From: Oscillospiraceae bacterium
GTDB lineage: Bacteria > Bacillota > Clostridia > Oscillospirales > CAG-272
NCBI GenBank assembly: GCA_015064725.1
Contig: SVRQ01000003.1
Span: 29,372 to 93,371 of the forward strand
Direction: 5' to 3'
Length of the DNA stretch: 64,000 nucleotides
Below the pieces are notes generated by a model. It was given only the letters and a program-made list of their open reading frames with translations, was not told where the DNA came from and did not search any database. The position numbers and the translations under genes are program-made. Below, piece after piece: positions 19,195 through 37,575 of the stretch (its first letter is position 1; every line of letters begins with the position of its first letter).

Positions 19195-19254
19195 GTTTAC
19201 CTGTCAACATTCATTATTTTTATTATAGCATAATTATGTTTACTTGTCAACATT
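19195..19254 (-). promoter_or_regulatory. Two direct 17-nt repeats (candidate MarR operator pair) bracketing the ligase promoter
   Basis: gtttacctgtcaacatt (19195-19211) and gtttacttgtcaacatt (19238-19254), 16/17 identical. Confidence 0.5.
19222..19250 (-). promoter_or_regulatory. Consensus SigA promoter for the ligase-marR unit
   Basis: Minus strand reads TTGACA - 17 nt - TATAAT. The -35 overlaps the cca stop codon. Confidence 0.65.
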
Positions 19255-20611
19255 TGCTTTTGTTTTTTCTTGCATAAGCAAGTGTTGCTTTCAGAGCCTC
19301 GTCCTTATCAACCCCCGCAAGGCGCAGTTTGTGTGCGTGATCAAGAAGCTTTCCGAAATTTTTTCCCGGGGTAAGCCCCGCTTCCGTAAGATCGCGCCCT
19401 CTGACGTAGGGTCTTGCCATAATTTCTTCAAAGATCCCAAGCCTTTCAAAAAGGAATTCATCGTAAGATACGGGCGCGGACGAACACACCCTGCCAAGGT
19501 GGTCTGCTTTTGCAATATAAACAAGATCGCGCGGGCAAAATGCGGCATCGAACATCTTGTTCGTTGCCTTTACGGAAGAGCCCATCGCGGCAAGCGCATT
19601 CGGACGCATATGAAGCCCTGCAAGGTTGAGCACGTATTTTATTACAGCCGTTTCATTTGTTATCCTTTTCAAAAAACGTTCTATTATCGGAAGCCCCTCT
19701 GTTTCGTGACCGTATGCGTGGATCTCCCCGTTTATAATGCTTGTACAAACAGCCTTGCCGAAATCGTGGCAAAGCGCTGTGAGCATAAAGGCAAAAGGAG
19801 CCGAGGTCTTATCGCGCAAGCGCGCTGCCTCGTCCAGCACCATCATCGTATGGTTCCAAACGTCCCCTTCCGCGTGGTGGCGCGGCGGCTGTTGCACTCC
19901 GATAAGTGCCTCAAGCTCCGGAAACCACTCGGAAAGCTTATCCATCTCTTTCAAAGCTTCAAAAAACACGGACGGGCGCGCCGCCTTGATCAGTGCTTTT
20001 TTCATCTCCCCCTCCACGCGCTCTCGCGAAAGGTGGGAAAGCGATATTTTACGGCACAGGAGAATCGTTTCTTCCGCTATGGAAAACTCAAAGCGCGCGG
20101 CAAACTGTGCCGCACGAAGCACGCGAAGCTCATCCTCTGCAAAAGTTTCGCCCGAAACGTGGCGAAGCACCTTGCGCTGAAGATCCGCCATTCCGCCGAA
20201 TTCGTCAACTATCTCACCCGTAAGCACGTCGCGCATTATCGCATTCACAGTGAAATCCCTGCGTTTTGCCGCCGTGCGCGTGCCGATAAAAGGATCTACA
20301 GTTGTTTCAAGATCCCTGTGTCCCCTGCCCGTTGCGTGCTCGCGCCGAGGCATAGCTATATCTATATTGTGGCCTTTGAGCGCGTATATACCAAAGCTTT
20401 CACCAATGGAGATGCGTTTTCCAAAGCTATCAAGTATTTTTTCAAGCTCCTCGGGGTAAACGCCGTGTATTTCTATATCGATATCCTTGTTTTCTTTTCC
20501 CATAAGCGCATCGCGCACGTATCCGCCCACAAAATAAGCCCTGCCTCCAAGGTTTGCAGCCTCCCGCGCGATATTTTTCGCCATTTCAAGATCTTTTTCA
20601 AAATCATTCAT
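19247..20611 (-). CDS. cca: CCA tRNA nucleotidyltransferase with C-terminal HD domain
   Basis: Pol-beta NTase motif GGYVRDALMG...DIDIE, and HD region PPRHHAEGDVWNHT...HDFGK. Confidence 0.85.
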   Translation of the reverse strand: MNDFEKDLEMAKNIAREAANLGGRAYFVGGYVRDALMGKENKDIDIEIHGVYPEELEKILDSFGKRISIGESFGIYALKGHNIDIAMPRREHATGRGHRDLETTVDPFIGTRTAAKRRDFTVNAIMRDVLTGEIVDEFGGMADLQRKVLRHVSGETFAEDELRVLRAAQFAARFEFSIAEETILLCRKISLSHLSRERVEGEMKKALIKAARPSVFFEALKEMDKLSEWFPELEALIGVQQPPRHHAEGDVWNHTMMVLDEAARLRDKTSAPFAFMLTALCHDFGKAVCTSIINGEIHAYGHETEGLPIIERFLKRITNETAVIKYVLNLAGLHMRPNALAAMGSSVKATNKMFDAAFCPRDLVYIAKADHLGRVCSSAPVSYDEFLFERLGIFEEIMARPYVRGRDLTEAGLTPGKNFGKLLDHAHKLRLAGVDKDEALKATLAYARKNKSKC

Positions 20612-20798: not shown

Positions 20799-23700
20799 TT
20801 AATCAATTTGCGGAGTTTTAATAAGTTCCATAAGTTTATCATATGAGTCTGCATTCTCTAACTGATTTTTTGAGGGAAAATGATCGTAATCCAAAAAGGT
20901 GATATCTTCCAATATTTTTTTCAAAAGAGTTACCAATTCGTCTTCTGTTTTAGCAGAATGATCCGGGATTTTTTCTTTAAAAATTTCTTTTAAAGCAAAA
21001 TTAGTGCAATGGAGCATCATCCGGACCAAAAACCAGAAATAACGTTCGTGGATGTCTTCTTTCTTTAAGTACCCAGTATATGCCGTTGCCATATCCTTGT
21101 TCAAGCAATGCGTTGATTCAAATTTATAGCTATTGAGCATTCTTGTTGCACCGCACAAAAGAAGCAGTTCATTCTGCGTATCCGCATCAATGGGGGCTTT
21201 TTTATTATAAACCGGATTATATAAGCGTTGATAGTAATCGGTGTAAATTATGTTTTTAAGCAATAATTCCTCGTCCCTACTAGCATTGTAGGCTTTTTTA
21301 CTACTACCAAAGTAGGCTTTTAATAATTTGGTTGCGCTATTGTCAAATTGCTCCGAAAGATCGGAAAATGCGTAAAAGGCCAAATTATTAGCAATAATCC
21401 CGGAAGGAGAATACTCCGTTTCTTTAAATTTAAGGATATCATTTAAAATGCTTTTTGGGCTATCTTGTGCACAGCCTTTAATTGAATATGTCTTATGATC
21501 AATCCAAACACGGTCTTGAAACTCAATAGCTTTTTTTAATAGAGGATAACTTGAGATTCCCTCATTTTCACACAGGTTTTGAAGCAAAAAGAACTCCGGC
21601 TGACCGTTCATAGTTGTTGTTTCTTCACCTAATCCCAATGCTTCGTTGAATTTTTCAACGGGATAACACTTAAAAAACTTATCGCGGTTGATCAATTCTT
21701 TCAGCAAGGGGACTTGCTGAGGATAGAGCTGTTTCAAGAAACAAGCACGAAACATATTCTCTTTTGACTTAAAAGAATAATCGTTCTCCGCATATAAAAT
21801 ATACGTCAAAATCATCAATGCACTTACTTGTTGAGGGCGCTCCTTTGCTTTGTATTCATTTGCTTTTTTGCAAAGTTCAGAGATGATTTCTTCCTTCTTT
21901 TTATGATCGCCAATATTTTTATACACTGAAATGGCGAACAGGCTCGTCGCTGCCACATTATAATGGAGATGATCAGACGTTTTGGGAAGATCATAATTGA
22001 TCATATCGTTAACGATACGGTTGACATCGAAATCATCGCTTAAAGTTGCCGCAGAAGCAAATACTTCAAGGAAAATTCGTTCCCATTTGTTCCGGAAATA
22101 ATAGTTGTCAGAGTTTTTTGCTTTTTCTAATACGATAGCATTGTCTTTGGCATGCTCAAACATTTGTTTGAGAGTCCCTTCTGAAAAGAAACCTTTATTA
22201 GCACCATCAAAATCGTCTTTTGTAAAATAACACGGAGACGGTTTTTCTTTTATTTTTTTTGCCAAACGTCCAAGTGCAATCTTTATATCAAAGCTACTAT
22301 ATCGGCAGTACTTTTTTGAAAAAATACAGCTGATTTTTTCATTTAAATTGTTTAAACAAGCTTCATACAAAGGTAAAATATCTACTTTGAATGTTATTTT
22401 TCCATTCGAGGGAGTCCAGTCTATGTTTATTTTAGATACTTTTTTCAAAAGTTTTATTGATTCTTCAGTATAATAATTTATTGTTTTTGGAAAAAAAAAT
22501 TCAAATTCGAGGGGGATTTCTTTTGTCACCTGACTTTCTAATTTTTTTACAATTGGATATTCAATAGACGCTTGTATCGTATCGGTATTATTTTCGTATA
22601 ACTCCTCTATGCGTTGCAAGTTTTCATTTATTTTTTTGTCGATTGATTCTTGCGTGTGTTCATCGCACTGAATTTGCCAACCATCATCTTGCAATTTTTT
22701 TATAGTGGATTGCAGAGGGAATATGCTTGAGACTTTTTGAACTATTTCACAAGGGTCATATATTATATCCATTAAACGCGCGGTTAGGTCGTAGTCCTTG
22801 TTATTGTTATTGTTATTGTTATTGTTATTGTTATTGTTTTTGTTTTTGCTTTGGTTCTTGTTTTTATCTTGGATAAATTGAATAAGAATACTATTCAATT
22901 CTTCTTCATCATTGATTGGAGTTTGTCCTATACATTTCAAAATTGCTATCAAAAGACAGAGTTCTTTTTCAATATCATATAGGCGAGTTTTGTTTAAAGC
23001 TCTCCCTACTATTTGAGGAAGTGAACCAGTTTCTTTATTAGAACTTTTTGGAAAGTTAAAAGTAGTAAGAGTCTTTCCTTTAAATAGCAAAATAACATCA
23101 TATCTGTTGCTATTTATGGTTTCAGCACACACCTCTTTTGCGTCTTTTTTTTGAATAGAATCTAAATCTAACGAGTAAGTTTTTTTGTTGTCATCCGCTG
23201 TAGAATGGCATGCAATCAGAGTTGAAATCAATTTTGCGAGCTTTAACTTTCCGTTTTCAAAATATTTTAATTTGGCGTTCAAATCCTGTATAATTTTCTC
23301 GAAATCCAGTTTCGTTGGGGAGTTTGAATCTTTATTTTTGTTTGTAATTGCCGAGGATTCGGAGGCGCTATAATCTGAACAATTATAAAGGTGTAATAGT
23401 TCTTCCTGGACGCTCGAAAAAAACCGTTTTGCATAACATTCCTTGATTTCGTCTATTTTCCCCAAATCAAGTTCTAACCATTCGTAAAGCTGATAAGCCA
23501 ATTTAGATAAATATTGGTTGCTCGAAGTATTGCTCGAAGTATTGCTCGAAATCTGACTAGTTTCGAATTGCATGTGGTTATTTCTTTTTAATGAATTTAT
23601 ACGATTAATATCATTTTTTATATTGATGAGATTATTGGAATAATCACGGGAACAAACACAGTAATCGTATATATGCTCTATGGTATAATCCATATAGTTA

Positions 23701-24002
23701 TTTATATAAATGTCACTTAAATCATCCATTGATACATATTCCTCAAACTGTATAATTTCCCCGTTTATCTTCAGGCAGCTTTCAAGAATAGGCGACAAAT
23801 TCCGGTTTAATTCGACAGCTTTTTTTATCACGTGGATAGCAATTTTAATAAGTTTGGTGAGGTCTCTTTTGTCAGCGCGTGTGATTGTCGTATATTTTTT
23901 TCTACGTGTATAAGCTTCCTCATAACAGTTTTTTATTAAAGTGTCATACGTGCAATTATAAATTCCCAATATATCTTCGAGTTTTTCTATTGTTGTACCC
24001 AT
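20799..24002 (-). CDS. Large orphan protein (1067 aa), AT-rich, N/K/I/Y-rich, with an internal poly-Asn tract
   Basis: Single uninterrupted ORF in AT-rich DNA. By eye there is no Walker A, HEPN, HD, nuclease or protease motif. Confidence 0.75.
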   Translation of the reverse strand: MGTTIEKLEDILGIYNCTYDTLIKNCYEEAYTRRKKYTTITRADKRDLTKLIKIAIHVIKKAVELNRNLSPILESCLKINGEIIQFEEYVSMDDLSDIYINNYMDYTIEHIYDYCVCSRDYSNNLINIKNDINRINSLKRNNHMQFETSQISSNTSSNTSSNQYLSKLAYQLYEWLELDLGKIDEIKECYAKRFFSSVQEELLHLYNCSDYSASESSAITNKNKDSNSPTKLDFEKIIQDLNAKLKYFENGKLKLAKLISTLIACHSTADDNKKTYSLDLDSIQKKDAKEVCAETINSNRYDVILLFKGKTLTTFNFPKSSNKETGSLPQIVGRALNKTRLYDIEKELCLLIAILKCIGQTPINDEEELNSILIQFIQDKNKNQSKNKNNNNNNNNNNNNNKDYDLTARLMDIIYDPCEIVQKVSSIFPLQSTIKKLQDDGWQIQCDEHTQESIDKKINENLQRIEELYENNTDTIQASIEYPIVKKLESQVTKEIPLEFEFFFPKTINYYTEESIKLLKKVSKINIDWTPSNGKITFKVDILPLYEACLNNLNEKISCIFSKKYCRYSSFDIKIALGRLAKKIKEKPSPCYFTKDDFDGANKGFFSEGTLKQMFEHAKDNAIVLEKAKNSDNYYFRNKWERIFLEVFASAATLSDDFDVNRIVNDMINYDLPKTSDHLHYNVAATSLFAISVYKNIGDHKKKEEIISELCKKANEYKAKERPQQVSALMILTYILYAENDYSFKSKENMFRACFLKQLYPQQVPLLKELINRDKFFKCYPVEKFNEALGLGEETTTMNGQPEFFLLQNLCENEGISSYPLLKKAIEFQDRVWIDHKTYSIKGCAQDSPKSILNDILKFKETEYSPSGIIANNLAFYAFSDLSEQFDNSATKLLKAYFGSSKKAYNASRDEELLLKNIIYTDYYQRLYNPVYNKKAPIDADTQNELLLLCGATRMLNSYKFESTHCLNKDMATAYTGYLKKEDIHERYFWFLVRMMLHCTNFALKEIFKEKIPDHSAKTEDELVTLLKKILEDITFLDYDHFPSKNQLENADSYDKLMELIKTPQID
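22798..22838 (-). repeat. In-frame hexanucleotide microsatellite (AATAAC)n encoding poly-Asn
   Basis: The plus strand reads (gttatt) about six times, encoding NNNNNNNNNNNNN inside the 1067-aa ORF. Confidence 0.9.
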
Positions 24003-24070: not shown

Positions 24071-24219
24071 AAGTCAATATCTGCATCGTTACAAAAACAA
24101 AAATCCCTTGACGTTAATCCGTCAGATGGCGACGAAATGCCATTTAACAACAATATTTACAAAAAGCAAAAACTCACAGAAAGTAGTCAAAGATATCAAA
24201 AACATCTTGGATAACAATA

Positions 24220-24248
24220 TTGTGGATTTTTATTTAAAGAATTATAAT
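24220..24248 (+). promoter_or_regulatory. Candidate promoter for the plus-strand island operon
   Basis: TTGTGG - 17 nt - TATAAT, about 80 nt upstream of the ATG at 24331. Confidence 0.4.
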
Positions 24249-24330
24249 AAAGATAAGAAAAAAACCAGAAAATTCTTCTGCTTCTTTTCACTCATCAACC
24301 ATCCACACCGTCCAAAAATAGGAGGACCCT

Positions 24331-24621
24331 ATGAATAAAACCATTTACACCATCCGCACAAACCAGAAGCTCCATAAGCTCTTCGAAACGGCGAGGGAGA
24401 GCTTCTTTGAAAAGAATGACCCCCAAACAGCAAAAAGACTGTTGACTGAAGCTATTGACCTTTACGAACAGAATGTCGAAAAGATTGATAGTGACCTTGC
24501 TTACGAAATTGAAGGCTTCTATAAGACCTTGTTGCAGACATTGGGCAATATCTACTTCGACGAAGGCAACTTCGACGAAGGCGAAAAGCTTGTTCATAAA
24601 TTCTACGATTATAAACTTTGA
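24331..24621 (+). CDS. Small TPR-like hypothetical protein (96 aa)
   Basis: AGGAGG RBS. TPR-like helix pair ...LLQTLGNIYFDEGNFDEGEKLVHKF. Confidence 0.6.
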   Translation: MNKTIYTIRTNQKLHKLFETARESFFEKNDPQTAKRLLTEAIDLYEQNVEKIDSDLAYEIEGFYKTLLQTLGNIYFDEGNFDEGEKLVHKFYDYKL

Positions 24622-24643
24622 TATGAAAGGAGATAATTCTACT

Positions 24644-25189
24644 ATGGAAAAACACACAAATTACGAATTTGAACTGCTTGCCTCCCACCACTTGACTCGA
24701 TCGTTGCTTTCATTGCTTACCGGAAGCGATGATCTGGACATCCTCAATTATTTTGAGACTGCCTACACAGTCGAGGCTGAAGATTACGAAAAACTGAACG
24801 CGGTCGCAAGAGCAATCGATTCGTATGTATTACAGACTATCGACAAAATACCGAATGGCACCACCTGTAAAGTCGAAAGAGATTTGCTTCGCGATTACAT
24901 AGTGCTTTGCTGGAGCAACTGGCAGTATTGGAAGAAATCGGACGATCTCTTCCAAGATGATAGTATCGCGGCAAAACTCTTTTTAGACAAGCTTCATCTC
25001 ACGATCGACAGCGCAGAAGCGAAAGCCATTTTCTCTGACGTATATGACTGCTCGATGGGAATATACGAGATCGAGGAGGTTGCCGAAGGACAAGTTGAAG
25101 GGGCTAAAGAAGCAATTCTTTTCGAGCTTGAAGCACGCCGAAAAGTGAAAAAATATCGCGATCTTGCTCAAAAAACAAAAAAAGAATAA
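24644..25189 (+). CDS. Hypothetical protein (181 aa)
   Basis: Start at MEKHTNYEF with AAGGAG RBS, 22 nt after the preceding gene. Acidic, with no recognisable motif. Confidence 0.6.
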   Translation: MEKHTNYEFELLASHHLTRSLLSLLTGSDDLDILNYFETAYTVEAEDYEKLNAVARAIDSYVLQTIDKIPNGTTCKVERDLLRDYIVLCWSNWQYWKKSDDLFQDDSIAAKLFLDKLHLTIDSAEAKAIFSDVYDCSMGIYEIEEVAEGQVEGAKEAILFELEARRKVKKYRDLAQKTKKE

Positions 25190-25443
25190 AAAGGAGGAGA
25201 CAAAATGGATACGATTTAAAATCCCACAAATACCCAAAATATGGAAAAGAAACTCACAAAAAATACTCAGAACACCTAAGAAGGGTCTGGGCGGCGCCAT
25301 TGTAAATCCCTGCTTTTCGTGGCATCATAGAATCAGAAAAAACGCCACCTCAAAATACTAATTTTCGAATGGTGAAGACAAAGCTGCCCCTGCGATTGCA
25401 GGGGCAGCAAAAAATAATTGCGATAAACGAAAGGATTTAAAAA

Positions 25444-26871
25444 ATGAATAACACGAATGATTTTTATATCTATGAAAACTATGATAATTATGACGATGAA
25501 AATGAAATTCAAGAAGATGAATACCACCAATACAGAGATAGCACGTATGAAATAATTTCAAAGGTCGCCTACCTCATTGGTATCCCGAAAAGCGTTTTTG
25601 TTAATCCGAATCATCCTCCCAAAATCGAAGTATACGATCGCATTGATAAAGACAAAAATGCTCGTATAATTAGACACCTGTGCGTTATTCGCAATCATAT
25701 AGAGCGCGGCTTCAAACACATAAATAACAAAATGAAGTTCGAATATACCAATAGATCCATCTTGTCTATGCCTGAGTACATTCCTCCCGAGAGCATTCGC
25801 CAGCTTAATGAAGACGGCGTGAACTTTTATAAATCCTCCAACACCCAGCTTTGTCAGCACGTTATAGAGATCAACCGTATCATTTGCGATCGAATTAACA
25901 ACTGCAAAAATCTCTTCCCTCTTTGGTTGAATTGGCAATTCATACGAAATCTGTTTATTATGCCTAACGGCTTGACTGAAACCGGTACCAAATCAGCCGC
26001 CGATTTATTCTATGACAACCTTAGTCTATATCCCTATAAAGTTTATATCAACTGGAAACCTCAAGAACAAGGCAATATCCTGTATAATGATAAAAAATTC
26101 GTCAGTCTTTTGTATGAGTGGAACGGCTCGATATTCACCGATTACAGCAAAGTGTCGGATGCAAGCACCTATATTAAAGGAACGATATACGATTTCGTTG
26201 ACGATAGCGAAAAAGTAGTCATCGTTGTAGACTGCGAGAATTCAGATCCCTACAAGCTGAGTGCAACGCTCCGCAACCTCGACTACACGCACACCAAAAA
26301 GATATCGTCCATCATTCTCTTCGATGACGTTCACACCGCATCGGCTTGGCGAATCCTTGAACAGTTTACGAATATCCCGGTAGAGCACGTGATGACAGAG
26401 AGAGTCAAAGAAAATAAATCCTTGGTCGATATGAAATTGGCACTTAGAGCGAGCAAGGAGCATTACACTAATAACGTGGATGCTTTCGTAATCGTATCTT
26501 CGGATTCGGATTATTGGGGTCTTATAGAATCTATGCCTGATGCAAAATTTTTGGTGATGGTTGAACGCGAAAATTGTGGACCCGACCTCAAAAACGCGCT
26601 CGTAAATGCAGGCATCTTTTACTGTTACATCGATGACTTTTACTCCGGCAATGCAGATGATGTCAAACACAGTGCTATTTTCAAGGCAATGTATGAGTAC
26701 ATCGATCGTAAGGTATCTCTTAATATCAACGATATGTTCGATGAGGCGTTGCAGGTTACTCGTGCCGAGATGACAACCGCAGAGAGAAATCAGTTTATTG
26801 CCAAGTACATAAAGACTATGCAAATGAAGATTGATGAAAACGGAAATCTCCAACTTGAATTCAAAAAATAA
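25444..26871 (+). CDS. NYN/LabA-like (PIN-fold) nuclease domain protein with a large unknown N-terminal region
   Basis: The C-terminal third carries NYN-type acidic motifs VVIVVDCENSDP ... SLVDMKLAL ... DAFVIVSSDSDYWGLI. The first ~270 aa are unassignable. Confidence 0.65.
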   Translation: MNNTNDFYIYENYDNYDDENEIQEDEYHQYRDSTYEIISKVAYLIGIPKSVFVNPNHPPKIEVYDRIDKDKNARIIRHLCVIRNHIERGFKHINNKMKFEYTNRSILSMPEYIPPESIRQLNEDGVNFYKSSNTQLCQHVIEINRIICDRINNCKNLFPLWLNWQFIRNLFIMPNGLTETGTKSAADLFYDNLSLYPYKVYINWKPQEQGNILYNDKKFVSLLYEWNGSIFTDYSKVSDASTYIKGTIYDFVDDSEKVVIVVDCENSDPYKLSATLRNLDYTHTKKISSIILFDDVHTASAWRILEQFTNIPVEHVMTERVKENKSLVDMKLALRASKEHYTNNVDAFVIVSSDSDYWGLIESMPDAKFLVMVERENCGPDLKNALVNAGIFYCYIDDFYSGNADDVKHSAIFKAMYEYIDRKVSLNINDMFDEALQVTRAEMTTAERNQFIAKYIKTMQMKIDENGNLQLEFKK

Positions 26872-26891
26872 CAAAAGAAAGGAAAGCAAAA

Positions 26892-27773
26892 ATGAGTGAA
26901 AAAAACGCAATTATCGGAACTATAATCGGCGACGTTGTGGGTTCCATTTACGAATCCAAAAATAGAAACACACCTTCGGTGTTTGATGAATGGTTTCCTA
27001 AGGTGAGAGAATGTAGATTTACCGATGATTCCGTACTGACCATCGCGGTAGCAGATGCTATAATGCAAACCGAAAAAAAGAAAGACGATAAGCATTTTGA
27101 GCGATTTTTTAAGGAAAGTCTGATTGACAATTTTCATTATCATTCAAGACAGCGTTCTTGCAGTTTTGAATATAGATTTTTGGATTGGCTCATACGCCGA
27201 GAAACACGTCCATATAATAGCAAAGATAATGGCTCTGCGATGAGAGTTTCTCCTATAGCATACACGTCCAAAACAATGGAAGACGTTTTGGATATGGCAA
27301 AGCTCAGCGCGCAAGTCACACATAATAACCACAAGGCTATTAAAGGCGCACAAGCAGTTGCAGCAGCAATATTTTTTGCGAGAACGGGACACGGCAAGGA
27401 GGAGATTCGCCGATTTATCGAAGAACGCTTTTACAAGCTGTCGTTTACCCTTGACGAGATTCGCCCCATCTATAAATATGATATCTCGTGTAACAATTCT
27501 ATTCCTCAAGCGATAGTTGCTTTTCTGGAAGCCTCCGATTTTGAAGAGGCAATAAATAACGCCATTTCTCTCGGTGGCGGCACGTTAGCATCCATCGCAG
27601 GAAGTATTGCCGGTGCGTATTATCCCATTCCCGAATATCTTCGCGATAAGGTCCTTACGTACCTCACTTCCGAGCAGACGGATATTGTGCTTCAGTTCGA
27701 AAAGCAATATGTATGCCATTTTCCTTTTTGTCGAAGAGAACTTCTATCGGAAACGCTATATTGGAATGCTTAA
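26892..27773 (+). CDS. ADP-ribosylglycohydrolase-fold protein, probably degenerate (metal-site motif lost, 3' end runs into the convergent gene)
   Basis: ARH motifs IIGDVVGS, FTDDSVL and NGSAMRVSP are present. The C-terminal GGDSDT motif of the paralog at 36773 is replaced by GGG-TLAS. Twenty non-homologous residues follow before the stop. Confidence 0.7.
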   Translation: MSEKNAIIGTIIGDVVGSIYESKNRNTPSVFDEWFPKVRECRFTDDSVLTIAVADAIMQTEKKKDDKHFERFFKESLIDNFHYHSRQRSCSFEYRFLDWLIRRETRPYNSKDNGSAMRVSPIAYTSKTMEDVLDMAKLSAQVTHNNHKAIKGAQAVAAAIFFARTGHGKEEIRRFIEERFYKLSFTLDEIRPIYKYDISCNNSIPQAIVAFLEASDFEEAINNAISLGGGTLASIAGSIAGAYYPIPEYLRDKVLTYLTSEQTDIVLQFEKQYVCHFPFCRRELLSETLYWNA

Positions 27774-28605
27774 AGCTACAAAGTTTGAATATTTTACGAA
27801 AGGTATCGGAATATACCTTTCTATCTTCAGTTATGCTAGGATGAAAAACTTTTGCCGCAAGATAAGGATTGTTTTTTATCTTGAAAACTTTACCTTCCAA
27901 TCCAGATCCGATCTCTTCGTCAGTGACCACGGCAAGACCGTCCTTCGTATAAAGCACGGGTGCGGCAGTATTGAATTCGAAAGGACGGGCAACGAATTCC
28001 GTTGCCTGAGTCACTGTGGTCACATTACCCCCATCCTTCTTGTCTGAGTCCTTTTTGGACTCAGACTTGGGCGGGTTTTCGTGCTCGTATATGCTTTCGA
28101 TTGTGTAAGAATATGTATTAATAAGATGTAACGGGCGTTTGTGAGCTACAGCTGAACCAATAGCTTCATAGGCGTTTTTGAGCGCCTCTATGAGTTTTAC
28201 GTCTTGCGTGAATACGATTATGGGCCCGGAAAGTATGTTATGAACAACCTCGCGGATAATCACCTGGTCAGCGAAGGCATTTTTAATGTATGCCGTAGGC
28301 TTACCTGCTACGTGAATATAACCCTTGTCGAGCAATCCGGCAAGATTAACGAGCCTCTGTTTCGCGGTAAAAGAGAGCTGCAGATTGTCTTTTGCAAGTG
28401 CCTTTTTCTCCAATTCTTCCACTACCACCAAGGGTACTACTATGATAGGCATTTTCTTGTTTTCGATAGCGGGGATAATATAATCCGTCATTATGGAGTT
28501 GAAGTGGTCGCCCAAAATGAATGCAGTATCGAGAATGGAGAGTATGTTGCAGCCCAAAATATGGGAAAACGTGGTCTTGTTGAGGGGCTTATTGTTGACT
28601 TTCAT
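27664..28605 (-). CDS. PIN-like domain fused to a protein-kinase N-lobe only (possible truncated remnant)
   Basis: Start at MKVNNKPL with AAGGAG RBS. PIN-type acidic positions ILDT, VVEELE, FADQVI, FTQDVKL. After a K/S/D linker come the Gly-loop IGSGLEGKVF and the beta3 lysine AAKVF. The ORF stops about 59 aa later, before any HRD/DFG region. Confidence 0.6.
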   Translation of the reverse strand: MKVNNKPLNKTTFSHILGCNILSILDTAFILGDHFNSIMTDYIIPAIENKKMPIIVVPLVVVEELEKKALAKDNLQLSFTAKQRLVNLAGLLDKGYIHVAGKPTAYIKNAFADQVIIREVVHNILSGPIIVFTQDVKLIEALKNAYEAIGSAVAHKRPLHLINTYSYTIESIYEHENPPKSESKKDSDKKDGGNVTTVTQATEFVARPFEFNTAAPVLYTKDGLAVVTDEEIGSGLEGKVFKIKNNPYLAAKVFHPSITEDRKVYSDTFRKIFKLCSFKHSNIAFPIEVLFDKKENGIHIAFRTEAQYPSARK

Positions 28606-28642
28606 AGTGTGAATCTCCTTTATGTAAAAATATTTTTTGATT

Positions 28643-29251
28643 TTAAGCGACTTCGCATTTGGCGGAAGTGTTATGGATGACATCGATGATTTTGTTTTCT
28701 ACGTAATCGTACTTTGCACGAATATCATCGAAAACGGGGATCTCAATGAAGTTGTTATGAGAAAGTAGGACGGCACGGGTTTGTTTCGCAAGAAGCCTTA
28801 TTTCATCTCTCGATTCTTGACGATAAAGATTGCCGTTTTTGGTATCGTTTACAAGATCAACAGCGCTGTCGAAATAGAACACCGCATCGTAGAGGTTGAG
28901 TATTTCGTCATAATCAAAGAGCTTTTTATATTCCTCGGGCATATAGACTGCCAGTCCGGAAATAAGCGATCGATCCGCGATAAGCACCACGGTATCCGAG
29001 GTTGCTGCAGCGGCGTCTTTAGCTGACCCGATTTCTTGAAGCTGAAGCTTCATAACATCAAGCTGAAAGCCGATTGTACCTCCGGAACGGGTAGGGTTTG
29101 CTTGGAACAGCTTTGTTGCTGCCTCCTCCGCGAAGATGAATCGGTATCCGCGGATGGGGTGCTTAGTGAATTGGTTGCTGAGGTAGTTCAAAGTAGAGCT
29201 CTTACCGCTAAGAGGTCCTCCGTCAAAACCAATTATTATAGGCTTGTACAT
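28643..29251 (-). CDS. P-loop NTPase (AAA_28/NadR-kinase-like)
   Basis: IIGFDGGPLSGKSST Walker A, FAEEAAT, and a Walker-B-like VVLIADRS. AGGAGA RBS. Confidence 0.65.
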   Translation of the reverse strand: MYKPIIIGFDGGPLSGKSSTLNYLSNQFTKHPIRGYRFIFAEEAATKLFQANPTRSGGTIGFQLDVMKLQLQEIGSAKDAAAATSDTVVLIADRSLISGLAVYMPEEYKKLFDYDEILNLYDAVFYFDSAVDLVNDTKNGNLYRQESRDEIRLLAKQTRAVLLSHNNFIEIPVFDDIRAKYDYVENKIIDVIHNTSAKCEVA

Positions 29252-29285
29252 ATTTGTCTCCTTTCTTTTTTGAATTTCTGATTAA

Positions 29286-29314
29286 ATTATAAGATATGCA
29301 GGCATGGATGTCAA
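29286..29314 (-). promoter_or_regulatory. Consensus SigA promoter for the NTPase / PIN-kinase genes
   Basis: Minus strand reads TTGACA - 17 nt - TATAAT. The -35 is embedded in the inverted repeat GTCAA-nn-TTGAC. Confidence 0.65.
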
Positions 29315-29405
29315 AATTGACACCAAAGGCATTTCTTTTTGTTTTGTATGCTTTTTGTGAGTTTCTAAAAGAGTATTGGAAATCAAGTGCTTTTTAAAAC
29401 GGTGC

Positions 29406-29672
29406 TTAATAACTGAATACAACACTTTCCGGACGAAAGAGGTATATGTTGCCTTGAATATTGTCGGTACTCTTATTATTATCAAATGCCTTAATGATTG
29501 AAACAAGAAGTTGCGATTGCGAATCGAATAAGCTGTTACAGAAACCATACAAAAGATGTTCACCGTCTGTTGCTTCTAAAAACGAACCCTTTTTGTTTGT
29601 CCAAAGAACTTTCGCCTTAAGAGTATCATACCCCGAAACAATTCCATCCGCCTCATAATACTTAACAGCCAT
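29406..29672 (-). CDS. Hypothetical small protein (88 aa)
   Basis: AAGGAGG RBS 7 nt before the ATG. No recognisable motif. Confidence 0.55.
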   Translation of the reverse strand: MAVKYYEADGIVSGYDTLKAKVLWTNKKGSFLEATDGEHLLYGFCNSLFDSQSQLLVSIIKAFDNNKSTDNIQGNIYLFRPESVVFSY

Positions 29673-29726: not shown

Positions 29727-29991
29727 TGATTTCATTTTATCAAAAAAAATTAAATTTTGGAATTGCGCTGCCCATATCGTTTTCTTCTATTGTGAGTGTT
29801 TTTTGTGAGTTTGGTGAACTATATTAAGCAAAGGTTAAAGGTATGAATCACCTATATCCCCTGTGATATCATTTTATCAAAAAAATTAAATTTTGGAATT
29901 GCGCCGCCATATCGTTTTCTTGTATTGTGAGTGTTTTTTTGTGAGTTTGCTGAACTATATTAAGTGAAGGCCAAATGTATAAATCGCCTCC
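29727..29991. repeat. Tandem direct duplication of a non-coding unit of about 127 nt (period about 137 bp)
   Basis: Unit 1 is 29727-29853 and unit 2 is 29864-29991. The first ~105 nt are nearly identical (tgat.tcattttatcaaaaaaa.ttaaattttggaattgcgc...tattgtgagtgtttttt.gtgagttt.gtgaactatattaag). There is no conserved ORF on either strand. Confidence 0.9.
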
Positions 29992-30085: not shown

Positions 30086-30116
30086 CCTCTGACGAATTAA
30101 CGTCAGGGGCTTTTTG
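30086..30116 (+). terminator. Orphan Rho-independent terminator (no upstream plus-strand ORF)
   Basis: cctctgacg-aattaa-cgtcagggg (9 bp including one G-U) followed by c-ttttt. Confidence 0.65.
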
Positions 30117-30268: not shown

Positions 30269-33200
30269 ATGACTAAAACCTTAAAAAGAATTTTGGCATC
30301 TGTTATGACCTTGGCGTTTGCGATAAACGCAGGAACTGCGCTTGCAAGCACCGCCTTTGTGGAAGAAGAGCTTCCCACCGCCGAGGAAATAATAACAGAC
30401 GCCATCCAAACAAGCACTGATGATATCGCGGAATACAATGGTGATATCACAGACGAAAACGGCAAAATGATCGTTCCCTTTGACGTGGCATATCCCGAAG
30501 CGTTTGCAAGCGGTGATTTTGCATACGACACAAGTTCCTTGTTGATCAAAATGAGCATGGATTTTGACGGTGAGCTCACCGACGGTCTTCGTGATTGCGG
30601 TTTTTCTGCTATTGAGGAATTGTTTACCATATCGAATACCGTGTGGTACAAGGCGTTTATTGCGGAAGGTACTGATATTCATACTGCTATGGGTAATGCT
30701 CGTGAAAACGAAGAGATTTTACTGGCAGACTATGATTATATAGTTAAAACTGCATCGGTGGAAGAAAGCAGTACGCCCGTCATAGCGACATCCTCTGAAA
30801 CCCAATGGTGGGGAGGCAGTGTTGCGGGAAATAGCAGGATTTCCGAACAATGGTATCTCAATAGCTGCAACATACAGCAAGTATGGGCGGCATTGGAGGC
30901 AGAAGGCATCAATGCAGGTGGATCATCGTCTGTTATTGTAGCTGTCATTGATTCTGGAGTAGACTATACTCATCCTGACCTCACAAGCAGTATGTGGGTT
31001 AACAAAGGAGAAATTCCCGATAATGGTATCGATGACGACGGAAACGGGTACATAGATGATATATATGGTTGTAGCACCATTGGCAGTAAATACGACCATA
31101 ATGGTAACCCAATGGACGACAATGGTCACGGTACACACGTTGCAGGTATTATAGGTGCGTCAAACAATAAAGAGGGTATTGTAGGCATTGCCTATAATTG
31201 TAAAATAATGGCTATTAAGGCAGGGACTGAAATATTAAATACTTCCGATATTGCCGAGGCCATTCTTTATGCGTATGAAAATGGTGCTGAGGTTATCAAT
31301 ATGTCGTTCGGAGGAGCTACACCTAATTTAGCCATTCAAGAAGCATTGGAATTAGCTGCAACAAGAGCAATATTGGTCGCAGCGGCAGGCAATGATGGCA
31401 AACCAGATGTGGATGGATTTTATATAAAAGCATTACCTCATTTTCCTGCGAATTTGCAATATGTTATCGGAGTTATGAGTGTCAATCAAATGGGAATAGA
31501 GTCCCAGTTTTCAAACTGGGAGTTTAATGATACATATAATGTGTATGCTCCCGGTGAAGGCATATTGAGTACGTATCCTGGTGGAAAATATGTGCGGTTA
31601 AGTGGCACATCAATGGCTGCACCTATTGTTTCAGGAATTGCAGCATTATTACGATCTAAATATTCGGATAGAGACTCTTTCCCAGCAAAATATGTGACGG
31701 CACAGATATGCGCTACAGGCACCAAAGATGCTATTTGCTGTGATATTAACAAGCATGTTAGGCTTTTAGTGGATGGAAGTATTGGCTCCCCTCATGAAAC
31801 AGCTAAAATTGTAAATGCTTATGCTGCACTAATGACAGTCCCTAAGCCAGAAGTAACATTATACGATGCGTATATATTTGATGATAAAACAATATCCGAT
31901 TCAAACAATGGTGACGGATTTGTGGATGCGGGAGAAACTATTTATATCGGTGCCATTTTGCAGAATACATGGGGAATGTCAAAAGATACCATTGTTACAA
32001 TAAGTAGCACCGATCCATATGTGGAAATTATTCAAGCCTCCTCAAATTTCGATGGTGTTGGCACTTTCTCGTTAAAAGATCAGCTTGTTCGAAATAATAG
32101 TAATATTGTTGTTGGAACTAATGAACCGTTAATTGTGAAGATAAGCAAAGATTGTCCACATAATTATCTCGTTAAACTAAATTGTAATATCGTTTTTAAA
32201 AACGGATTAAATGAGAAGGATTCATCGAGTTATAACTCGTCACGCCCAATTACGTTTAAGACCATAAGAGCCACGGAAATTCCAACTATAATTGATAAGG
32301 ATATAACTTTGACCAACGAGCATCTGTATGTTTTGAAAGCGGACACATTTGTATTAAAGGATGTAACCATTACAATAGATGCCGGTGCCGTGATAGATAT
32401 GATGAGCAATTCGCTAACTGGATATGGAACAGTTTATTTTAATGGAACAGAAAATGAAAGGATTACTGTTACAAGCACCCCCATTCCAGGATCATCTCGC
32501 AATTCTACTTTTTCTATTCCTGAAGTAATAGTAAATTATACGGATATTGTTGAGGTAGGATCCTTTGGGTGTACCAGCTTCAATTATAGCACATTTACTT
32601 CAGGCGGTTCGAGTAGTCAGTGGTTTAGTGCAGATCATATATACGCTTCTACATTGCGTGATGCTAGTATAAGTGCAGGACTGGTTGAAAAATCAGAAAT
32701 TATTTATACAGATTATGCTAATCGTTACAGTGATTATAAAATAAAAGCTACCAGAGTTATTGAAACAAGTATGTTGAATGACTCTGATCGCCCCACATCT
32801 AAAATATATATTGCTGGTAGTAGCGAGGAGTGCAGATTTGTGGGACCTTGGAAATTTTTTGATAGTTCGAGTTTCGTACCGTCCAAAAATCTTTATTCAA
32901 AATGTATTTTTCAAAACAGTGCTATAGGAAATCCATATTACAGTTCTGGAGGGATGGTAGACAAATTTTTTGTTAATGATTCAACAAAAACAACTTATTT
33001 ATGTGTTCGCCTTGGACAAAGTCTACGTGTACATCCTCTTATCGGTGAGACTATAGCGAACCTGTTTGGGGGACATTTGCTTTGCATAGAATCAACTGAA
33101 GAGTATAATTGGTTAATTGAGCAGGGCGTGTCAGGACATTGCGGATTGGTATTTGGTAATGAAATGTGGTTAAACGGAGAGTCATTGGAGACTTTTATTG

Positions 33201-34828
33201 AAATCGTTGATTGGGGTAACCATGGGGCAGATACAACAATTTTAGGGGAATTCAACAACCTATCACTTAGCCAAGGTGGCGTTAGCGCAGCAGGTAAAAT
33301 TCTTTTCTATGATGATTATGATACTGGATATTACGATAAAGATGTCTATGTGATCGAAATAGTAAATTCGAATATTTCAAATATTACAGAAGCTAATGAT
33401 ATTTTGGCTGATTATATGGCATCAACTCGTGGTCAAATACGATTGGTTTATGATTGTTCCATAGTCAATAACTTGGCTAGTGGTCAAATCAATGCGCTGT
33501 CTAGTAATAATGTCGGTAACTATGAAGAAATTGTAACATTGAGTATAGACGGCTTATATTGGGGAACAACGGATGAAGAGATGATAGAATATCAAATTCT
33601 TCATTTTAACGATGAACCATATCGTCGTGATATACTTGATTATTCTGGTTATCTTACGGAGGCTCCCTCCGACACAATGCCATTTGTTGTTGATGCTTAC
33701 CTTCTTAACCAAAACGGTGCACGTGTTCGTACTGTCAACAACGAAACCGTGACCTTCGTGGTGGAGTTTAACCGAGATATGGATACGAGCGTTCCTTTGA
33801 AGGTATCTTTCGGTTCTTCTGCAGAATATTTCTACGAGGACTACAACATTTCGGAATACGGCAATTGGGTAACTCCTCAACGTTGGGAAGCAACATACAC
33901 CCTCAAGACCGTCATCGAAAACGGTAACCACACCATCAAGGTGGAAAACGCTCAAGCCGCAGACGATGAATATCTCAAGCTTTACGACATTCCCGGACGC
34001 TTTATGTTTGAAATTGATACTACTGCCGCTCAGGCACTTATTATGCAAGGCCATGCTACCGAAACTGGTATCCAGCTTTCGTGGACGCAGGATGATTTCG
34101 ATATTCTGATGGGATACAACGTATACCGCTCCGACCGAGAGGATGGTTATTATCAGCGTTTGAACACGTCTGTTATTCCTTTCGATCAAAAGGAATTTTT
34201 CGATGATACTGTAGAACCCGGCAAGGTTTATTATTACAACTTCACCGTTGTCAAGACAGACCTTACCGAATCGGAGCCTTCGGGTAAGATTTCGCTGATG
34301 TCTATGGATACGATGGCACCTAACATCTATCACTCCCCTGTTCGCTCGGGCTTTGTCGGCACGAATATCGTTGTCGGCGCCACCATCACCGATAACCTGA
34401 TGATACGCTCCGCGGCGCTTTATTGGCGCGTTATCGGTGAAAGCGATTGGCATAGATCCGATATGACCGCGCTTAATAGCTCCTATACGGGCGTTATCTA
34501 CGGCAACAGCGTAACGCTTTCGGGTGTTGAATATTACATAGAGGCTTTCGACGGCGTGAGCCATACATACAAAGGCTCTGCGGAAAATCCGTATCAAATA
34601 TCCGTTCAGCAGGCTGTGGATGCAAGTTCCCTTGGCGATGTTGACGGTGACGGTATCATAACTTCCAAGGATGCGCTTATGCTGATGCAGGCGGCAAACG
34701 ATCTTCTCAATCTCACGGAAGAGCAGTTCTTGCGCGCCGACATCAACAAGGATAAGGAGCTTTCCGCCGCAGAAGCTCTCCGTATCCTCCAATACGTAAG
34801 CGGAAAAATAACTACGATTACGGGTTAA
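30269..34828 (+). CDS. Secreted multidomain subtilisin-like (S8) serine peptidase with C-terminal dockerin
   Basis: Signal peptide MTKTLKRILASVMTLAFAINAGTALA. Catalytic triad AVIDSGVDYTHPDL / DDNGHGTHVAGII / LSGTSMAAPIVSG. C-type-lectin-like GGHLLCIESTEEYNWL. FN3-like LSWTQDD...GYNVYRSD...YYYNFTVV. Dockerin DVDGDGIITSKDALMLMQ...ADINKDKELSAAEALRILQYV. Confidence 0.9.
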   Translation: MTKTLKRILASVMTLAFAINAGTALASTAFVEEELPTAEEIITDAIQTSTDDIAEYNGDITDENGKMIVPFDVAYPEAFASGDFAYDTSSLLIKMSMDFDGELTDGLRDCGFSAIEELFTISNTVWYKAFIAEGTDIHTAMGNARENEEILLADYDYIVKTASVEESSTPVIATSSETQWWGGSVAGNSRISEQWYLNSCNIQQVWAALEAEGINAGGSSSVIVAVIDSGVDYTHPDLTSSMWVNKGEIPDNGIDDDGNGYIDDIYGCSTIGSKYDHNGNPMDDNGHGTHVAGIIGASNNKEGIVGIAYNCKIMAIKAGTEILNTSDIAEAILYAYENGAEVINMSFGGATPNLAIQEALELAATRAILVAAAGNDGKPDVDGFYIKALPHFPANLQYVIGVMSVNQMGIESQFSNWEFNDTYNVYAPGEGILSTYPGGKYVRLSGTSMAAPIVSGIAALLRSKYSDRDSFPAKYVTAQICATGTKDAICCDINKHVRLLVDGSIGSPHETAKIVNAYAALMTVPKPEVTLYDAYIFDDKTISDSNNGDGFVDAGETIYIGAILQNTWGMSKDTIVTISSTDPYVEIIQASSNFDGVGTFSLKDQLVRNNSNIVVGTNEPLIVKISKDCPHNYLVKLNCNIVFKNGLNEKDSSSYNSSRPITFKTIRATEIPTIIDKDITLTNEHLYVLKADTFVLKDVTITIDAGAVIDMMSNSLTGYGTVYFNGTENERITVTSTPIPGSSRNSTFSIPEVIVNYTDIVEVGSFGCTSFNYSTFTSGGSSSQWFSADHIYASTLRDASISAGLVEKSEIIYTDYANRYSDYKIKATRVIETSMLNDSDRPTSKIYIAGSSEECRFVGPWKFFDSSSFVPSKNLYSKCIFQNSAIGNPYYSSGGMVDKFFVNDSTKTTYLCVRLGQSLRVHPLIGETIANLFGGHLLCIESTEEYNWLIEQGVSGHCGLVFGNEMWLNGESLETFIEIVDWGNHGADTTILGEFNNLSLSQGGVSAAGKILFYDDYDTGYYDKDVYVIEIVNSNISNITEANDILADYMASTRGQIRLVYDCSIVNNLASGQINALSSNNVGNYEEIVTLSIDGLYWGTTDEEMIEYQILHFNDEPYRRDILDYSGYLTEAPSDTMPFVVDAYLLNQNGARVRTVNNETVTFVVEFNRDMDTSVPLKVSFGSSAEYFYEDYNISEYGNWVTPQRWEATYTLKTVIENGNHTIKVENAQAADDEYLKLYDIPGRFMFEIDTTAAQALIMQGHATETGIQLSWTQDDFDILMGYNVYRSDREDGYYQRLNTSVIPFDQKEFFDDTVEPGKVYYYNFTVVKTDLTESEPSGKISLMSMDTMAPNIYHSPVRSGFVGTNIVVGATITDNLMIRSAALYWRVIGESDWHRSDMTALNSSYTGVIYGNSVTLSGVEYYIEAFDGVSHTYKGSAENPYQISVQQAVDASSLGDVDGDGIITSKDALMLMQAANDLLNLTEEQFLRADINKDKELSAAEALRILQYVSGKITTITG

Positions 34829-36691: not shown

Positions 36692-36750
36692 GTCAAATAT
36701 ACTTGACATACCTCAATTCATATGCTATACTATTGTCAAATATATTTGAC
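36692..36750 (+). promoter_or_regulatory. Consensus promoter flanked by two 16-bp palindromic operator-like sites
   Basis: TTGACA (36703-08) - 17 nt - TATACT (36726-31). gtcaaatatacttgac (36692-36707) overlaps the -35. The perfect palindrome gtcaaatatatttgac (36735-36750) lies just after the -10. Confidence 0.7.
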
Positions 36751-36772
36751 TTCAATAAAAGTTGGTGAATTT

Positions 36773-37564
36773 ATGATAGGTGCAATTATAGGCGATATTG
36801 TCGGTTCGGTATATGAGTTTAAAAACGTAAAGTCCAAACGTTTCAAATGGTTCGCCAAAGGATGCAGGATAACGGACGATACCGTCCTTACTGTTGCCGT
36901 GGCAGACGCTCTGCTCGACATTGCGGCAGCAAACGACGAGGCAAGCTTTAAGGAGCTGCTTATCGACAAATTTCATTACCACGCGCGCAACCATTTGCTT
37001 TGCGGATTCGGAGCCCGCTTTTTATCTTGGGTATCCAAGCAGCAAAGAACGCCATATAACAGCTTCGGAAACGGAAGCGCTATGCGTGTATCCCCTGCGG
37101 CATACGCCGCAAGCACCCTGGAGGAAGCACTTTATCTTGCGAAGCTCTGCGCAGAAATAACTCACGATCATCCGGAGGGTATAAAAGGCGCTCAATGCAC
37201 CGCAGGAGCGATATTTCTTGCAAAAATCGGATACAGCAAGGAGGATATCAGATCGTTTGCAGAAAAATATTACGATCTCTCGTTCACACTTGATGAAATA
37301 CGCCCCGTATATAAATACGAAATATCCTGCCAAGGTTCCGTGCCGCAGGCAATAGTCGCTTTTTTGGAAGCCAAGAACTTTAAAGATGCTATTTCAAACG
37401 CCATTTCCATCGGTGGGGATAGCGACACGATAGCAGCTATAACCGGCTCCGTTGCGGGGGCATATTACCCGATATCCGAAAAGCTTCGCAAAAAGGCTTT
37501 TTCTTACCTTGATTTCGAAGCGACCGACATTATTTTGCGGTTTGAAGAAAAATTTATAAAATAA
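36773..37564 (+). CDS. ADP-ribosylglycohydrolase-family protein (intact motifs)
   Basis: MIGAIIGDIVGS, ITDDTVL, NGSAMRVSP and GGDSDTIAAITGSVAGAYY are all present. Confidence 0.85.
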   Translation: MIGAIIGDIVGSVYEFKNVKSKRFKWFAKGCRITDDTVLTVAVADALLDIAAANDEASFKELLIDKFHYHARNHLLCGFGARFLSWVSKQQRTPYNSFGNGSAMRVSPAAYAASTLEEALYLAKLCAEITHDHPEGIKGAQCTAGAIFLAKIGYSKEDIRSFAEKYYDLSFTLDEIRPVYKYEISCQGSVPQAIVAFLEAKNFKDAISNAISIGGDSDTIAAITGSVAGAYYPISEKLRKKAFSYLDFEATDIILRFEEKFIK

Positions 37565-37575
37565 GGAGCGCGTCT

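Follow-up and report, generated by a model that had tools for sequence, protein, structure and literature searches.

A probable relic of a mobile-element accessory region: convergent NYN/ADP-ribosylhydrolase and AAA_28/PIN-kinase gene modules in an Oscillospiraceae genome

The locus described here lies in a 64,000-nt stretch of contig SVRQ01000003.1 (assembly GCA_015064725.1) from an Oscillospiraceae bacterium. This whole stretch is called the window, and coordinates count from its first letter. Two gene modules face each other at 24331-29672. The plus-strand module includes genes for an NYN-domain protein and a protein of the ADP-ribosylhydrolase (ARH) family; the minus-strand module includes genes for an AAA_28 P-loop protein and for a protein with a PIN-like domain followed by the beginning of a Ser/Thr kinase. 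A first-pass annotation made from the letters alone had proposed that the two modules form a single undescribed defence or toxin-like system. Comparison with related loci (cited by L numbers) and related proteins (P numbers) reveals that the two genes meeting in the centre were both cut at a rearrangement junction. The open reading frames (ORFs) and the junction are as follows.

24331-24621, plus strand: 96-aa protein encoded by the leading conserved gene of the plus module; TPR signal below threshold (23.9 bits, cut-off 27)
24644-25189, plus strand: 181-aa protein, function not assigned, its gene in conserved pairing with the 96-aa gene (HicB-like_2: 16.5 bits, cut-off 30, E 0.009)
25444-26871, plus strand: NYN-domain protein, 475 aa (PF01936, 32.5 bits, cut-off 24.2)
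26892-27773, plus strand: ADP-ribosylhydrolase-family ORF, 293 aa (PF03747, 108.5 bits)
27701-27713, no strand: rearrangement junction, placed by blastn between the end of homology to the ARH gene of L020 (27700) and the start of homology to intact kinase genes (27713)
27664-28605, minus strand: 3'-truncated PIN-like Ser/Thr kinase gene, 313 aa, recognised by comparison with P0002 and P0003
28643-29251, minus strand: AAA_28 P-loop protein, 202 aa (PF13521, 39.8 bits, cut-off 27), with Walker A motif GGPLSGKSS and a DR motif
29406-29672, minus strand: 88-aa protein, function not assigned, recognised as an ORF with relatives

All seven ORFs of the first-pass annotation are present where it had placed them, and the ORF list bears out the two facing modules. 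Its calls of NYN, ARH-fold and P-loop NTPase proteins also hold, the NYN and AAA_28 matches exceeding the Pfam cut-offs, and the TPR likeness of the 96-aa protein exists as a signal that stays below threshold. The A+T-rich island in which it had set the modules is equally apparent, the G+C content being 0.31-0.43 between 21 and 30 kb and roughly 0.45-0.50 across most other parts of the window.

The convergent ARH and kinase ORFs share 110 nt (27664-27773). By blastn, homology of the window to the contigs L009 and L010, and to the kinase gene of L020, a 20.5-kb plasmid-like contig, runs from about position 29689 down to exactly 27713 and then stops. On the other side, the ARH gene is homologous to that of L020 (67.5% identity) up to residue 274. 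Residues 1 to about 274 of the ARH are native, and the last 19 codons (275-293) are read-through into antisense kinase DNA: in tblastn searches these residues map onto the antisense strand of the kinase genes of L009 and L020. The kinase protein ends in a comparable way, tracking its relatives to the residues ...FDKKENGI, after which 15 foreign codons lead to a stop. The overlap of the two ORFs is therefore a symptom of rearrangement, the signature of a deletion or rearrangement junction that cut both genes.

The kinase ORF could start at 28683 (339 aa) or at 28605 (313 aa), the latter being the likely true start, as in its relatives. Its product retains the PIN-like domain, the linker, the Gly-loop and the Lys. 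Among 5.8 billion clusters only three close relatives were found, one of which is the same 313-aa protein; the two others, P0002 (506 aa, 80% identity) and P0003 (500 aa, 75% identity), both have a complete kinase domain (Pkinase, PF00069). The catalytic-loop residues D353 and N358 of P0003 (D353-x-R-x-x-N358) and its DFG-equivalent D371 have no counterpart in the window protein. A tblastn search of the 64-kb window, in which the vWA and PP2C queries were the proteins of L009 and L020, found no vWA, PP2C, kinase C-lobe, relaxase, ParA or recombinase. The first-pass annotation had recognised a PIN-like domain fused to a kinase N-lobe; both parts are there, but comparison with the 500-506-aa relatives indicates that the fusion product results from truncation of a gene and is not a designed architecture. 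With no vWA, PP2C or catalytic lobe of the kinase in the window, the minus module should be unable to signal or work as its intact relatives do, and loss of function of the truncated operon is the expected consequence. The result is corrective in a wider sense, as truncation and read-through across a junction can mimic a new fusion architecture.

The intact form of the minus-strand operon is found in L009, where the 88-aa gene is followed by AAA_28, PIN-kinase (500 aa), vWA (PF00092) and PP2C (PF13672) genes. The pattern recurs, at roughly 23-32% protein identity, in L022/L023 (48 aa - AAA_28 - PIN-kinase - 98 aa - vWA - PP2C), in L024 (AAA_28 - PIN-kinase - vWA and a cut-off downstream gene) and in L133/L134 (AAA_28-like - PIN-kinase - vWA - PP2C). 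In L025 vWA and PP2C genes follow that of a 792-aa kinase bearing a treble-clef zinc finger at its C-terminus, and there is no AAA_28 gene. The vWA gene lies directly 3' of the kinase gene in L009, L020, L022, L024, L025 and L133, and a PP2C gene (PF13672) is present in L009, L020, L022, L025 and L133. The additional 98-aa gene of L022 (8472-8768), between the PIN-kinase and vWA genes, encodes a protein with no Pfam match.

A triad of this kind, TerY-P, was reportedly set out by Anantharaman, Iyer and Aravind in 2012, and its activity in phage defence is said to have been shown by Gao et al. in 2020. We know of no identified effector for it. The triad is defined as a TerY-like vWA protein, a PP2C phosphatase and a Ser/Thr kinase, and constitutes a predicted phosphorylation switch tied to conflict systems (PMC11090510; PMC4978471). 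It is active experimentally against T7-like phages and Autographiviridae (PMC11090510; PMC4978471; PMC7699616; bioRxiv 10.1101/2022.08.12.503731).

The intact relatives of the minus module (L009, L020, L022, L024, L025 and L133) resemble TerY-P in having kinase, vWA and PP2C genes adjacent in an operon, and in their mobile-element or defence-island-like setting. The longer kinase relatives moreover carry a C-terminal zinc ribbon or treble clef, as TerY-P kinases do (zf_Tbcl in 3 of 17 family members; zf_Tbcl or DZR_2 matches in the long members P0133, P0137 and P0139). They differ from TerY-P in the N-terminal PIN-like domain of the kinase and in the conserved AAA_28 P-loop gene located 5' of the kinase gene in four divergent lineages. 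The short kinase forms also lack the OB-fold or zinc-ribbon tail: those nearest to the window gene (P0002, P0003 and P0124) end in a helical extension with no zinc ribbon or OB domain. In the window itself only the 5' part of the operon survives and the triad is absent, there being neither a complete kinase nor an adjacent vWA or PP2C gene. The intact operon is best called a TerY-P-like variant on the strength of its domains and gene order; its kinase bears a PIN-like domain at the N-terminus and, in the short forms, is accompanied by AAA_28. The literature searched contained no description of a PIN domain combined with TerY and PP2C, and the intact AAA_28, PIN-kinase, vWA and PP2C operon is apparently a rare and undescribed variant of TerY-P. 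A kinase physically fused to a nuclease-like domain provides a concrete candidate for the TerY-P effector. The window locus itself is ordinary as a relic, and such novelty as there is lies, as far as checked, in the intact operon from which it derives.

Searches of defence-system models agree in part with the first-pass statement that the locus maps to no named system. PADLOC-DB v2 contained no family matching any of the eight window proteins scanned at E <= 0.1, although the intact relatives of the minus module are of the TerY-P triad kind. Applied to these relatives, PADLOC gave generic kinase matches, a weak PP2C match (E 0.004) and STK_OB at 1e-5 in two distant members including P0139, and its models did not match the relatives' vWA proteins. 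The single-gene kinases PD-T4-6, mad6 and MkoA match the relatives' kinase domain weakly (E 1e-8 to 1e-12); these matches cover the generic kinase core only, the architecture and partner genes differ, and the window protein has no such match. For the window proteins, NCBIfam and PHROGs gave nothing beyond a match of the ARH to phrog_6572 (8e-43), and Rfam had no match in the window at the gathering threshold.

The PIN call on the kinase N-terminus is reasonably supported at the family level. In the window protein PIN_4 scores 18.1 bits, under the Pfam cut-off of 21.9, while a PIN_4 match is found in 7 of 17 family members (best E 1.8e-5) and PADLOC CARF_PIN in 2 of 17. Four acidic residues (D26, E63, D112 and D133) are conserved across the family. 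The model of P0003 is confident (predicted local distance difference test score, pLDDT, of 83) and its N-terminal domain is alpha/beta; in a fold search with the whole model, kinases alone were matched, swamping the PIN-like part. The family is rare. When the first 298 residues were searched exhaustively with HMMER against 1.84 billion representatives, only 18 proteins were found at E <= 1e-3. Scans of metagenome contigs with the PIN-kinase alignment and then with P0003 alone confirmed no relative, and the domain was not found in reference plasmid and phage databases.

The AAA_28 protein is the conserved upstream neighbour of the PIN-kinase gene in L009, L010, L022/L023, L024 and L133. Its residues G11, G12, G16, K17 and D93-R94 are invariant in five divergent homologues; no match was found in viral contigs, nor among PDB sequences by single sequence or profile. 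The 88-aa protein is 82% identical to the product of the 88-aa gene 5' of AAA_28 in L009 and 41% identical to that of an 86-aa gene in L020, located just upstream of a gene resembling the 96-aa gene. A toxin-antitoxin reading of the small proteins was rejected, as the HicB-like match of the 181-aa protein and the YafO match of the 88-aa protein (17.5 bits, cut-off 153) lie far below threshold. The defence link drawn in the first-pass annotation is supported in so far as the minus module is the 5' part of a TerY-P-like operon.

The window ARH is of the ARH3/DraG/Tri1 type. It has a full-length PF03747 match and PDB sequence matches to ARH3 (1e-12), and it retains the first metal-binding motif, TDD. 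It differs from that type in two respects. The second motif reads GG--GT where a paralogue elsewhere in the window and the L020 homologue have GGDSDT, a position that aligns with GGDTDT of ARH3 in solved structures, and the protein ends in 19 foreign residues. The GGDxDT motif supplies two of the metal-ligand aspartates. Since the second metal-binding motif has been lost and the native C-terminus replaced, the window ARH is probably inactive.

The paralogous ARH gene (36773-37564, plus strand) is located about 9 kb from the first. Its product is 58% identical to that of the first gene, with GGDSDT intact, and 65% identical to the ARH of the plasmid-like contig L020. It is followed by genes for a 68-aa Cro/C1-type helix-turn-helix protein (37576-37782) and a 473-aa protein without Pfam match. 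Together these three genes (36722-39193, plus strand) look like a separate small operon.

The NYN gene belongs to a large family. Among 2521 homologues, the best 120 are 65-97% identical over the full length. The motifs VDCENSDP and SSDSDYW are invariant, as are D263, D268, D354 and D356 in 22 sequences. The fold and the conserved acidic motifs, in residues ~255-375, are those of NYN/LabA-like nucleases: Foldseek matches the core to LabA-like 2qip (VPA0982) and to the NYN domain of Marf1 (5yaa). The likeness ends there, as the conserved N-terminal ~230 aa and C-terminal ~90 aa match no recognisable family. No OST-HTH/LOTUS domain was detected, no PDB sequence was matched, and the AlphaFold model is poor outside the NYN core (pLDDT 56.5). 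When one genome per species was scanned, relatives at 60-70% identity were found in 255 genomes of Oscillospiraceae, Lachnospiraceae, Ruminococcus, Christensenellaceae and others. A family of 460-480 aa at this level of identity across hundreds of gut Clostridia, present on integrative and conjugative elements (ICEs), prophages and plasmids and without assigned function, is a second lead from this analysis.

Neighbourhoods of the NYN gene were examined at 80 genome loci, up to 6 kb on each side. Homologues of the ARH, 96-aa, 181-aa, 88-aa, AAA_28 and kinase genes, or of a 1067-aa gene described below, occur at none of them. About 18-31 of the 80 loci share one ICE-like context (DEAD_2 helicase - NYN - 205 aa) that adjoins BREX or type I restriction genes and ArdA/ArdC-type genes. 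About 49 lie amid ordinary housekeeping genes, and the neighbours are diverse (the 150 neighbours span 176 Pfam families, no family being found in more than 6 of them). In L016-L019 the gene occupies a stable single-gene locus with thrS-region genes on one side and polyamine genes on the other, and in L021 a copy is found at the cargo end of a prophage. In viral and plasmid collections the family is represented on 27 contigs of IMG/VR (two with an ARH gene no more than 6 kb away), in 2 of 50,697 phage records (both unannotated) and in 1 of 72,556 plasmid records. The window NYN is an intact, essentially stand-alone gene with no obligate partnership with the ARH or the kinase module.

In L011-L015 (5934-10044), the widespread ICE-like element of gut Clostridia, the NYN gene (68% identity) lies directly after a gene for a 682-aa DEAD_2 helicase and before that of the conserved 205-aa protein, and these genes are just 3' of the BREX genes for PglZ and BrxL. 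The helicase-NYN-205aa trio may be a unit of its own. In the window, the stretch separating the predicted NYN promoter from the start codon of the gene contains a perfect 11-bp G+C-rich hairpin (GCTGCCCCTGCGATTGCAGGGGCAGC, 25383-25408) with no plus-strand U-tract. This hairpin may stabilise the mRNA or act as a regulatory structure at its 5' end, or it may terminate transcription on the minus strand. The idea of a leader RNA conserved across the NYN family was rejected, since the upstream region, including the hairpin, is not conserved at other NYN loci.

These distributions raise the question of whether the NYN protein is chiefly an enzyme of RNA processing encoded by the chromosomes of Oscillospirales and Lachnospirales, only occasionally picked up by mobile elements and saying nothing about defence. 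The breadth of the family over 255 species-level genomes, with many residues invariant along the full length, its diverse housekeeping neighbours and the stable thrS-region/polyamine locus are as such an enzyme would have it. The presence of the family at similar identity in ICE, prophage and plasmid-like contexts suggests, on the contrary, frequent horizontal transfer. On balance this explanation is somewhat unlikely, and as it concerns the NYN gene alone it is compatible with the window region being a relic.

Two loci, L020 and the more distantly related L022, carry homologues of genes from both modules. The 96-aa homologues adjoin a 181-aa-like gene in L020 (69% identity) and L022 (30%), and the corresponding 181-aa homologues are 50% and 29% identical, respectively. 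The contig L020, which has NikA-like, relaxase, ParA and resolvase genes, bears the array 86 aa - 91 aa - 179 aa - ARH (67.5%) - 94 aa - NYN (88%) on one strand; on the other, about 9 kb away, it has kinase (89% to P0003), vWA, PP2C and SprT-like genes, and plasmid maintenance genes separate the two sets. In L022 the AAA_28-PIN-kinase-vWA-PP2C operon lies beside a divergent 919-aa gene and is convergent with an array containing the 96-aa and 181-aa homologues, in which Metallophos and Sel1 genes stand in place of NYN and ARH. The 919-aa protein is related to the product of a large gene at the left of the window island:

20799-24002, minus strand: 1067-aa protein with no recognisable domain, from an A+T-rich gene with a poly-Asn run; found repeatedly beside the kinase operon

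The two proteins are 30% identical over 580 aa (E 2e-56). The 1067-aa protein had no Pfam, PADLOC, NCBIfam or PHROG match, and a viral-contig scan for it was empty. From the layouts of L020 and L022, the conserved set is the large protein, the AAA_28-kinase-vWA-PP2C operon and the 96/181-aa pair, with NYN and ARH as variable cargo. Large serine recombinase genes are present within a few kb of the kinase operon in two divergent lineages (L022 473-2155; L133 6835-8358), which suggests that the AAA_28-PIN-kinase-vWA-PP2C operon travels on recombinase-mobilised elements.

The gene order of L020 also permits the plus-strand genes to be seen as cargo that helps a conjugative or mobilisable element to establish itself or to counter defences, the ARH reversing ADP-ribosylation by host defences or toxins and the NYN protein cleaving host or competitor RNA; the kinase operon would then be the element's own defence and the window copy would be dead. 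The L020 array does follow the NikA-like and relaxase genes on the same strand, the ARH matches a phage family (phrog_6572), and NYN homologues occur on the ICE-like element with ArdA and ArdC-type genes, at the prophage cargo end and on the IMG/VR contigs. Yet most NYN loci, about 49 of 80, are set among housekeeping genes and the family is scarce in the phage and plasmid records; besides, no homologue is known to have an anti-defence function. With these points taken together, such a role is decidedly unlikely.

The promoter regions of the island provide a further connection between the two modules. The elements concerned are the following.

24106-24128, plus strand: left copy of a 23-nt hairpin-containing repeat (CCTTGACGTTAATCCGTCAGATG), with its inverted partner at 30086-30108
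24170-24182, plus strand: 13-nt box, copy 1, upstream of the 96-aa/181-aa unit
25250-25262, plus strand: 13-nt box, copy 2, upstream of the NYN gene
29286-29314, minus strand: perfect sigma-70-type promoter, TTGACA-17-TATAAT, between the 88-aa and AAA_28 genes
29352-29364, minus strand: 13-nt box, copy 3, upstream of AAA_28, about 38 nt before the promoter
29727-29989, minus strand: tandem duplication of ~136 bp within the promoter region that precedes the 88-aa gene, with sub-blocks 85-97% identical
29800-29812 and 29936-29948, minus strand: 13-nt box, copies 4 and 5, inside the tandem duplication
30086-30108, minus strand: right-hand partner of the 23-nt hairpin-containing repeat, in inverted orientation to the left copy

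Five copies of the 13-nt box AAACTCACARAAA are present in the window, where 0.27 would be expected; all are confined to 24.1-30.0 kb, and each precedes a transcription unit in the orientation of its genes. An alignment of the four upstream regions extends over ~110 nt, with the box followed by ~38 nt, a -35 element, 17 nt, a -10 element and then AATCAGAAAAAA; the tandem duplication doubles both the box and the putative promoter. L009 has the box at the corresponding position before AAA_28, and so, with one mismatch, does L022, where boxes with at most one mismatch precede four transcription units. These observations suggest that the box probably co-regulates all four promoters. The perfect TTGACA-17-TATAAT promoter noticed in the first-pass annotation is indeed present; since it is 3' of the 88-aa gene, it is predicted to serve AAA_28 and the kinase and not the whole minus module.

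The 23-nt repeat has two matches in the window and none in 100 shuffles, and its copies bracket a 6-kb segment containing both modules. Inverting the segment 24106-30108 would give the layout of L022, and an inversion between the repeats is plausible but unproven. No tRNA gene was found in the window and no integration-site hallmark was identified there.

Judging by their co-occurrence on L020 and L022 and the shared promoter-upstream box, both modules descend from one mobile-element family, and their juxtaposition is not random. It is another matter whether they form one functional defence or toxin-antitoxin-like system, in which NYN and PIN would be effectors, AAA_28 and the kinase sensors, and ARH a modifier, as first proposed. 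The modules do occur together in the window, L020 and L022 (there without NYN and ARH), all four promoters share the box, no named PADLOC system is matched and the allele is kept across samples. These facts have to be set against a kinase truncated at the same junction that clips the ARH, the absence of vWA and PP2C, and an ARH deprived of its second metal-binding motif. Nor are NYN and ARH conserved partners of each other or of the kinase. The neighbourhood comparison called for in the first-pass annotation found the modules together on L020 and L022; at all 80 genome loci, however, NYN lies apart from every other gene of the locus, L022 has Metallophos and Sel1 at the NYN/ARH positions, and L020 keeps its two sets ~9 kb apart with plasmid maintenance genes between them. 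A single combined system is accordingly very unlikely.

The region is much more readily explained as a chromosomally fixed, decayed remnant of a mobile-element accessory region than as a working new system, and probably has this origin. Its source would be an element of a plasmid-like or recombinase-borne family found in Clostridia of the gut and rumen, and the window would hold parts of two transcriptionally related gene sets from that element. The minus strand would represent the 5' end of an operon of four or five genes (those for a small protein, AAA_28, PIN-like Ser/Thr kinase, vWA and PP2C). A deletion at 27712/27713 would have taken vWA, PP2C and the sequence coding for the catalytic lobe of the kinase, together with all that lay between them and the final few codons of the convergent ARH gene, leaving on this strand the 88-aa gene, AAA_28 and the PIN-like domain with a dead kinase stub. 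The plus strand would carry the conserved 96-aa/181-aa pair followed by variable cargo, an intact NYN gene and the probably inactive ARH. In the intact ancestor, a vWA/kinase/PP2C switch may have sensed infection and controlled the fused PIN-like nuclease effector, with AAA_28, a kinase-like P-loop protein, as a nucleotide-dependent accessory. The NYN gene would be an independent nucleic-acid-cleaving accessory, recruited under the promoter type of the element.

Several observations weigh against this explanation. The truncated allele is identical in at least 9 contigs from 7 metagenome samples and is thus stably maintained, although the identity of the allele across samples leaves no power for a selection test. 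The short representatives P0125 (173 aa) and P0127 (161 aa) of the PIN-like family may be natural stand-alone PIN-like domains, and the intact-looking PIN-like domain, AAA_28, 88-aa gene and promoters of the window may retain a reduced function. Co-occurrence of the modules in three divergent elements, together with the shared cis box, could mean a functional link and not common descent only. PADLOC does not recognise the relatives' vWA, PP2C and kinase proteins as TerY-P, so that the assignment follows from domain architecture and gene order, and the proposed inversion derives from one comparison (L022) and a short inverted repeat pair.

It could accordingly be argued that the large protein of 900-1070 aa, the AAA_28-PIN-kinase-vWA-PP2C operon and the 96/181-aa pair with interchangeable cargo (NYN/ARH or Metallophos/Sel1), under a common 13-nt box, constitute one undescribed Clostridial mobile-element conflict system with a PIN-like nuclease effector, of which the truncated version still works as a kinase-independent AAA_28 and PIN module, perhaps with NYN. 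This is unlikely.

Beyond the modules, one further ORF was predicted by gene callers on near-identical contigs:

24126-24338, plus strand: 70-aa ORF overlapping the box, -35 and -10 region of the 96-aa gene

Because it lies over this promoter region and has no homologue in the relatives, including L020, it is probably a spurious gene call; it is probably also the eighth protein counted in the first-pass annotation. In the 1067-aa gene, TTGTTA repeats at 22798-22857 encode the mid-protein poly-Asn tract (NNNNNNNNNNNNN), which is unusual for bacteria.

Near-identical copies of the region (99.8-100%) are present in several rumen and gut metagenome contigs (JGI, ENA), bordered by a cohesin gene and a dockerin-bearing S8 peptidase gene. 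In the window, where a CCA-adding-enzyme gene occupies 19247-20611 on the left side, the segment 30269-36485 (plus strand) encodes a 1519-aa S8 peptidase with a dockerin domain (30269-34828) and then a 550-aa cohesin-domain protein. These cellulosome-type components are located directly to the right of the island, in a region that is also low in G+C (0.35-0.42).

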